Both the position numbers and the translations under genes were made by a program. This document shows positions 1 through 721 of a DNA stretch of 12,341 nt, in pieces (positions within the stretch are counted from its first letter, which is position 1; each line of letters opens with the position of its first letter). Origin of the DNA: Escherichia coli (GTDB taxonomy: Bacteria > Pseudomonadota > Gammaproteobacteria > Enterobacterales > Enterobacteriaceae); the NCBI RefSeq assembly GCF_003334815.1, contig NZ_QOWO01000059.1. The stretch is one strand, 5' to 3'. Under the pieces are notes generated by a model. That model worked only from the letters and a program-made list of their open reading frames with translations, made no database searches and was not told the origin of the DNA.

Positions 1-77
1 ATGGCTCATGATGTCCCTCTGGGATGCGCTCCGGATGAATATGATGATCTCATATCAGGAACTTGTTCGCACCTTCC
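1..77 (-). mobile_element. IS5-family insertion sequence, terminal 77 bp (element continues beyond window start)
   Basis: Reverse complement of 1..77 begins ggaaggtgcgaacaag, which I recognise as the IS5-type 16-bp terminal inverted repeat, and ends ATGAGCCAT = Met-Ser-His, matching the InsH transposase N-terminus (MSHQ...) at positions 9..1 on the minus strand. Overall about 80% similar to the IS5 end as I recall it, so IS5-like rather than IS5 itself. Flanking tetranucleotide ttaa (78..81) fits the IS5 YTAR target preference. From memory, not searched. Confidence 0.65.
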
Positions 78-721
78 TTAATTACCGGCCAACCGGAGGT
101 GAAAAACCAACCGCCTTTAGCGTCGCTTCCGGCAGTTTTGAACACCGAAGCTTCTGAATAACCGTCGCTAATAATGTTACGTAAATGTGCTGGTTGCGCA
201 GTGAGTTGCAGATAGCCTTTAGCAACCCCCTCGATACCCTTCTCTTCGCCATAATTAAGAACGTAACTGCCATCAAGCGGGTCTAGCTCAGCCTCAGAGA
301 GCGCTGCAACATAAAAGCCAGCCTGCCCCGTCGCCAGCCAGAATACGGGCAGATTACGGTTCATCACCGCCTGTATTAATTGCGCAACAGGCAACTCAAC
401 TGACTGAGCAAAGTTAGAAAGCGAGATCATACCCTCACCAGCAAGCAGCGGGGCGCAGTCACTTAAAGTTCGATAATCCAATTGTTCATACTCTTGTAAG
501 GTCTGATACCAGACCGCCAACAGGAGCGCGGACTTCTGCTTTGCTTCATGAAGATCGTGAGTGCCTGTTGAAGTGTGAATCTCACACTGTCCTGCGTATC
601 GACGAAAACGTTGGGGAATGCTAATGCGGACAACATAAATGCCGCTGGTTCGACGATAGAGTTTATATCGCTGAGACATCGCCTCGTATACCCTTTTGTA
701 AGAGGGGCTACGCGATTTCAA
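50..721 (-). CDS. leuX-adjacent ORF with tyrosine-integrase-type N-terminal DNA-binding motif, 3' end truncated by IS5-family insertion (likely gene fragment / pseudogene)
   Basis: ORF track 223 aa. The first codon at 719..721 is TTG; a more plausible start is ATG at 677..679 (MSQRYKLYRRTSGIYVVRISIPQRFRR...). The motif YKLYRR-SGIYVVRI-IP resembles the N-terminal arm-type domain of genomic-island tyrosine recombinases (DUF6538-like, from memory). The last 9 codons (EGANKFLI, stop at 50..52) are encoded by the IS terminal repeat (61..77), so the native reading frame is interrupted at 77/78. Position and orientation (immediately 3' of a tRNA, reading away from it) are typical of island integrases. 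The downstream 140 aa do not obviously resemble an integrase core. Confidence 0.45.
   Translation of the reverse strand: MKSRSPSYKRVYEAMSQRYKLYRRTSGIYVVRISIPQRFRRYAGQCEIHTSTGTHDLHEAKQKSALLLAVWYQTLQEYEQLDYRTLSDCAPLLAGEGMISLSNFAQSVELPVAQLIQAVMNRNLPVFWLATGQAGFYVAALSEAELDPLDGSYVLNYGEEKGIEGVAKGYLQLTAQPAHLRNIISDGYSEASVFKTAGSDAKGGWFFTSGWPVIKEGANKFLI

Follow-up and report, generated by a model that had tools for sequence, protein, structure and literature searches.

ISKpn26 is mainly an element of Klebsiella and of plasmids. Its counterpart in Escherichia coli K-12, IS5 (IS5A, insH1), belongs to the same family, is 1,195 bp long compared with 1,196 bp for ISKpn26, and has the same terminal repeats. 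In the literature, ISKpn26 is well described, with 273 papers naming it, largely for the disruption of mgrB in Klebsiella pneumoniae, and leuX appears as a classical integration site of genomic islands. The stretch of DNA analyzed here (12,341 nucleotides; hereinafter, the window) is a 12.3-kb segment of an E. coli chromosome in which one end of ISKpn26 interrupts an integrase gene next to leuX. In all probability, ISKpn26 transposed into the integrase gene of a small but widespread leuX-integrated island of E. coli, giving a truncated product. Both elements are catalogued and the resulting chimeric fragment is already deposited; the event is an ordinary one and nothing new in kind. The only mildly novel point is the middle domain of the integrase subfamily to which the interrupted gene belongs.

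Gene content of the window

On the plus strand, the window consists, in this order, of the IS end (1-77), a minus-strand ORF (mechanically, 50-721), tRNA-Leu(CAA), ahr (yjgB), yjgR, lptG, lptF, pepA, holC, valS and part of yjgN (Table 1). Both of its edges are IS ends (1-77, ISKpn26; 12184-12341, IS10/ISVsa5), a pattern typical of short-read contigs, which break off at repeats. At the right edge, the IS10-type terminus (annotated as ISVsa5, IS4 family) is inserted in yjgN (DUF898; 11486-12183, minus strand), which it cuts down to the C-terminal 232 codons. The identical yjgN/ISVsa5 junction is found in E. coli BS15R-A, where fosA5 (fosfomycin resistance) lies between two ISVsa5 copies, forming a composite transposon within yjgN. 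Taken together, ISKpn26 and the IS10/ISVsa5 insertion in yjgN, which in one complete genome belongs to a fosA5 transposon, suggest that the strain took up mobile DNA of resistance plasmids. The gap between pepA and holC (7780-8100) contains overlapping ORFs on both strands with repeated peptide motifs (e.g. ...LIRPTSSVLCRSDKAF.PHP.ITALPDA...), the signature of a REP/BIME-type intergenic repeat cluster.

Table 1. Coordinates of the features around the insertion (window positions, unless another locus is named)
Feature	Position	Strand	Remarks
ISKpn26 end, left (transposase-proximal)	1-77	-	100% identity to annotated copies
ISKpn26 transposase ATG	9-7	-	reads towards the window edge, co-oriented with the integrase gene
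Chimeric ORF, 209 aa	50-679	-	201 native integrase residues, EGANKFLI, stop at 52-50
16-bp ISKpn26 terminal inverted repeat GGAAGGTGCGAACAAG, read inwards	62-77	-	
TTAA target site	78-81	.	abuts the inverted repeat; one copy in the uninterrupted gene
Middle domain, residues ~80-201 of ~80-222	78-442	-	AF2
Native 5' portion of the integrase gene, nt 1-602 of 1,911	78-679	-	no difference from the strain 300709 allele
DUF6538 domain, residues 7-63	491-661	-	Pfam
attL core, 28 nt GGTTCGAGTCCGGCCTTCGGCACCAAGT	767-794	-	leuX 3' end; perfect repeat at the far island end in strain 300709
leuX, tRNA-Leu (anticodon CAA)	770-854	-	
Lesions of the same integrase gene in other assemblies	L002 5322-8353; L007 2141-4050; L009 3071-4980; L010 3071-4979; L022; L024		

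The insertion sequence end

All 77 nt at positions 1-77 recur without a difference in 4,175 plasmid records, which come mostly from Klebsiella; wherever the records are annotated, the match overlaps an ‘IS5-like element ISKpn26 family transposase'. In pABWA45_1, the same 77 nt close an element of 1,196 bp; its terminal inverted repeats, 16 bp each, are GGAAGGTGCGAATAAG and GGAAGGTGCGAACAAG, and its transposase CDS begins 68 nt inside the end shared with the window. The imperfect 16-bp inverted repeat of the form GGAAGGTGCGAA(T/C)AAG is present once in the window and at both ends of the pABWA45_1 copy; that an IS5-type repeat of this length ends at position 77 had been correctly recognized in the original prediction. 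Only transposase codons 1-3 (MSH) fall within the window; a sister contig (L004) includes 17 codons and prolongs the reading frame to MSHQLTFADSEFSTKRR, and the complete transposase CDS is annotated in the reference ISKpn26 copies.

By its sequence, the 1-77 segment is an end of ISKpn26 itself, an element of the IS5 family and IS5 group. The earlier estimate of about 80% similarity to IS5 is close to the mark for this end of the element (75.3% identity to K-12 IS5 over the 77 nt, so that 1-77 is not IS5 proper) but not for the whole elements, which are 91.0% identical. The suggestion of a distinct family member, i.e. a new relative of IS5, was rejected given the 100% match to ISKpn26 over the 77 nt.

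The junction and the chimeric reading frame

When positions 1-1000 of the window were compared by megablast with 5,426 complete E. coli genomes, 355 of these matched from position 1000 down to exactly 78, with 99.9% identity; no match extended below 78, and the ISKpn26 junction is carried by none of the 5,426. Strain 300709 is identical to the window at 922 of 923 nt, the sole mismatch (742) being located in the spacer between leuX and the integrase gene. At the break, the intact allele of this strain reads GGTAATTAAACCCGAT, compared with GGTAATTAA joined to GGAAGGTG in the window; over a longer stretch, the intact reading is GGTAATTAAACCCGATACG and that of the window is GGTAATTAA joined to GGAAGGTGCGAACAAG. 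The original claim that an IS5-family element cut a leuX-adjacent, integrase-like gene at 77/78 thus proved accurate, with a perfect ISKpn26 match on one side of this point and an abrupt end of similarity to the uninterrupted genomes on the other. The known target preference of the IS5 group is YTAR, and the TTAA next to the inverted repeat fits it.

The minus-strand ORF at 50-721 is indeed present; its TTG start at 721 is only mechanical, the annotated start being the ATG at 679. Its tail and stop are IS-derived, as originally proposed, but the IS contributes the third base of the Lys-201 codon, 8 whole codons (EGANKFLI) and the stop, rather than 9 codons plus stop. In the uninterrupted genomes, the ORF runs on as ...VIKPDTLLINK... 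and does not have the EGANKFLI terminus. The chimeric protein is already on record as CAM9416733.1, a ‘DUF6538 domain-containing protein' from contig CBDBYT010000071.1 (12,335 bp).

A window bounded by IS ends on both sides, which is typical of short-read contigs, could also have arisen by a chimeric join of reads at a repeat, in which case the integrase gene would in reality be intact. However, six independent short-read contigs, among them NCBI GCA_965212685.1 and Logan ERR271227, encode the identical 209-aa product; they come from different assemblies and assemblers and differ in the length of the IS overhang (77, 121 and about 27 nt), so that a single error of assembly does not account for the junction. 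Moreover, the join coincides with a canonical TTAA and with the final base of the inverted repeat. An assembly artefact is, therefore, an extremely improbable explanation.

The far side of the insertion

The most likely scenario is a simple insertion, whereby a copy of ISKpn26 would have transposed into the TTAA at nt 599-602 of the leuX-island integrase gene in the E. coli chromosome. The IS sits after nt 602 of 1,911, and the ORF translates into 201 native and 8 IS-coded residues. The 602 nt that remain show no difference from the intact allele, which suggests a recent event. What is visible in the window is one IS junction with the adjoining TTAA. Under simple insertion, the sequence past the right end of the IS would be ...TTAAACCCGATACG..., with the remainder of the integrase gene behind it; the right-hand junction was accordingly sought as the IS end + TTAA + ACCCGATACG.

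A metagenome scan with the 32-nt right-hand junction yielded 0 matches, and in exact-protein look-ups for six predicted products of the C-terminal fragment, none could be traced to the IS allele. In particular, there was no record of edge-started products with 121, 77, 25-27 or 28-30 nt of IS overhang, nor of the 448-aa product that starts with TTG. A look-up via the neighboring NIPSNAP protein returned other alleles only. Two candidates were rejected: a 431-aa C-terminal product is on record, yet all its sources are frameshift alleles rather than the IS allele, and a 349-aa C-terminal fragment (P0041) belongs to a frameshift allele with a 1-nt deletion at nt 806, not to an ISKpn26 insertion.

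These null results, together with the fact that every contig containing the left junction ends inside the IS, would also be compatible with the IS being the end-point of a deletion or rearrangement: once ISKpn26 had inserted, the 3' two-thirds of the integrase gene, and perhaps the island as well, would have been lost or moved elsewhere through an IS-mediated adjacent deletion or through recombination with another ISKpn26 copy. The negatives are weak, however, because the look-ups require exact protein strings, which depend on the contig ends and on the start chosen by the gene caller. Furthermore, the left junction shows the canonical TTAA target, and in the complete genomes inspected in which IS91 interrupts the same gene, its 3' part is retained, at least in the enterotoxigenic strain ETEC4073. 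A deletion or rearrangement is thus unlikely, even if it deserves more weight than the other alternatives discussed here, and simple insertion is the reading followed below.

The interrupted integrase gene

In strain 300709, the intact gene immediately follows leuX on the same strand, consists of 1,911 nt and encodes a 636-aa protein annotated as ‘site-specific integrase' (WP_000083138.1). This protein, which is shared by strains 300709, ML35, Nissle 1917 and many porcine ETEC, among others, is identical to the native 201 residues of the window ORF, and its gene occupies the same genomic position, downstream of leuX and ahr; compared with it, the window allele breaks off after nt 602, so that residues 202-636 are missing. 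The gene is present in 602 of the 5,426 complete E. coli genomes, in 351 of them at ≥99% identity and in about 250 as a ~85% variant that includes O157:H7 strains, and is essentially full length in 600 of the 602. Close homologues are found in Enterobacter, Cronobacter, Yersinia, Pectobacterium and Pantoea.

The domain content of the intact protein is that of an integrase. The Pfam matches are DUF6538 at residues 7-63 (E = 7e-8), Phage_int_SAM_5 (PF13102) at 259-376 (E = 0.0026) and Phage_integrase (PF00589) at 436-582 (E = 5e-9), and the PHROGs family phrog_1 (‘integrase') covers 256-617 (E = 3e-32). The search for a catalytic domain that had been proposed as a check, when run on the uninterrupted allele, thus recovers it along with the full R-K-HxxR-H-Y set: R443, K477, H551, R554, H577 and Y588 show little or no variation among 26 homologues, the most distant of which have 21% identity. 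In the full-length AF2 model, for which a shallow alignment was used, there is a confident integrase fold at 250-630, and the core-binding domain at 259-376 is a SAM-like helical bundle (pLDDT 80-92). By these features, the uninterrupted gene codes for a tyrosine recombinase.

The window ORF itself matches DUF6538 (PF20172) over residues 7-63 with E = 1.1e-8, in agreement with the original observation of an N-terminal motif typical of tyrosine recombinases of genomic islands; the model matches 23 of the 27 homologues. The predicted beta-beta-alpha-beta fold of this domain, followed by a long helix (43-66), resembles arm-type DNA-binding domains of integrases. The ORF has no PF00589 catalytic domain, ending as it does at residue 201 plus 8 IS-coded residues, and no core-binding domain, residues 259-376 being downstream of the cut; hence, what the window holds is a disrupted member of the family rather than a functional one.

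Two options had been left open for this ORF, a divergent integrase or a different protein with a borrowed N-terminal DNA-binding domain. The latter could draw on DUF6538 being the sole domain detectable in the window and on residues 64-201 belonging to no Pfam or NCBIfam family. Nevertheless, the uninterrupted allele, identical over the 201 residues, continues into the core-binding and catalytic domains, and the middle region, fragments and two repeat-type matches aside (P0084 and P0089, see below), is found in ~600-690-aa proteins of the same architecture. The borrowed-domain option is thereby refuted, with virtually no probability left to it, and the integrase option is upheld by the intact 636-aa allele.

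The additional middle domain

The original prediction held that the ~140 residues following the N-terminal motif do not look like a core-binding domain. This is corroborated by the position of the core-binding domain farther downstream, and structure modeling indicates that these residues are part of an additional folded domain. In the earlier full-length AF2 model on the shallow alignment, residues 67-243 had low confidence. A rerun on a diversified alignment (A2) of 27 N-terminal halves, with a mean pLDDT of 82.6, yielded a compact alpha/beta domain at residues ~80-222 (pLDDT about 90-95), followed by a disordered linker (224-240). The first ~45 residues of the domain may form a winged helix of the MerR/excisionase type.

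For residues ~64-258, no Pfam, NCBIfam or PDB sequence match was detected with either the single protein or the profile, and a Foldseek comparison of the middle domain with PDB returned nothing under E = 0.5. In AFDB50, the structure matches are first to integrases of the same architecture and then, at E about 1e-6, to uncharacterized proteins of ~210-260 aa; one of the matches at about this E-value is labelled DUF2285. Among 1.84 billion representative proteins, the middle region has only 33 relatives at E ≤ 1e-3. In most of the full-length relatives listed, when fragments and two repeat-type matches (P0084, 1,457 aa; P0089, 1,268 aa) are set aside, the region is located at ~61-260 of ~600-690-aa proteins with the same architecture as the leuX integrase. 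A literature search found no paper that mentions DUF6538.

In the ~640-aa DUF6538 integrases, a small uncharacterized subfamily, the fourth domain (~80-222) might be a built-in directionality or DNA-bending module; we regard this as a rather improbable conjecture. If true, a single protein could integrate and excise a 7-9-kb island in which no excisionase is annotated, and in the truncated allele of the window, the DNA-binding half would have been split from the catalytic one by nature. In any case, the extra domain of this integrase family might merit structural or biochemical work.

The leuX island and its attachment repeats

In strain 300709 (locus L006), a perfect 28-nt direct repeat is present at 299-326 and 8926-8953. 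It takes in the final 25 nt of leuX and 3 further nt, the second copy is 8.6 kb downstream of the first, and no match of this kind is expected by chance; repeats of the leuX 3' end thus flank a segment of ~8.6 kb. Between the repeats are the genes for the integrase, a NIPSNAP-family protein, a DUF1643 protein (in this strain, interrupted by an IS3-family element), a resolvase-family recombinase, a hypothetical protein, a membrane protein and an HTH protein; the annotation of the ~8.6-kb island includes no excisionase gene. Past the second repeat, there are remnants of older islands and then the fec, nan and fim genes. A third, degenerate copy of the repeat (68%), at 27900-27927 of the same locus, suggests tandem accretion of islands at leuX.

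Consequences of the insertion and other lesions of the gene

The truncated product would keep DUF6538, a putative arm-type DNA-binding domain, and most of the middle domain, and would lack the core-binding domain and the entire catalytic domain (R443, K477, H551, R554, H577, Y588). Given this domain content, it should be recombination-dead, that is, unable to cut and rejoin DNA and to recombine attL with attR. The island, if still present, could no longer excise or re-integrate with its own enzyme and would be mobile only with the help of an integrase acting in trans. The insertion thus appears to be a routine IS inactivation of a mobile-element integrase, of the kind that tends to lock a genomic island in place, and for the purposes of annotation, CAM9416733.1 is best treated as an IS-truncated integrase pseudogene, not as a distinct protein.

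Independent inactivation of the same gene has occurred repeatedly in other strains as well. IS91 has inserted at two different positions in two to three genomes of porcine ETEC (near nt 694 in ETEC4073; in ETEC1706, the match ends at nt 1400), and an IS3-family insertion in the integrase gene is present in GCA_016889045.1. Other assemblies have small deletions, namely, 1 nt at nt 450, 2 nt at 561-562 and 1 nt at 806. Several of these lesions are in the same N-terminal third of the gene as the ISKpn26 site, and the latter insertion would be one of several independent knock-outs.

The retention of DUF6538 and of most of a folded domain raises the question of whether the truncated protein gained a function, as a regulator that binds att sites or as a dominant-negative inhibitor of related integrases. 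Read-through from the integrase promoter might also drive the ISKpn26 transposase, which is co-oriented with the integrase gene and whose ATG is 40 nt downstream of the chimeric stop. Against such a gain, the middle domain loses its final strand and helix (205-223) to the cut and, according to the model, is probably compromised or destabilized as a result; the allele is seen in six contigs only; and the lesions of other strains are scattered over many positions, a pattern more suggestive of decay than of selection for a single product. A gained function is, accordingly, very improbable, and inactivation by simple insertion remains the preferred interpretation.

Comparison with known systems

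The IS end in the window shares with ISKpn26 the identical 77 nt, the matching 16-bp inverted repeat, the adjoining TTAA (YTAR-type) and the transposase start at the expected place; over the last 77 nt of the element, the part within the window, no difference is detectable. The distinction lies in the target, which is an integrase gene on the E. coli chromosome instead of the mgrB gene of K. pneumoniae for which ISKpn26 is known.

The interrupted gene can also be compared with classical tRNA-associated integrases of islands and phages, such as lambda Int, the HPI integrase and the P4-like IntB of KpLE2, the leuX element of K-12. All these proteins combine a small N-terminal DNA-binding domain with core-binding and catalytic domains, as does the intact leuX integrase analyzed here, and integration at a tRNA 3' end that leaves direct repeats is also common to them. 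The N-terminal domains differ, being DUF6538 here and members of the Arm-DNA-bind families in integrases of the lambda Int, HPI and IntB type. Unlike the latter, the leuX integrase contains an extra folded domain of ~140 residues between the N-terminal and core-binding domains and is about 200 aa longer.
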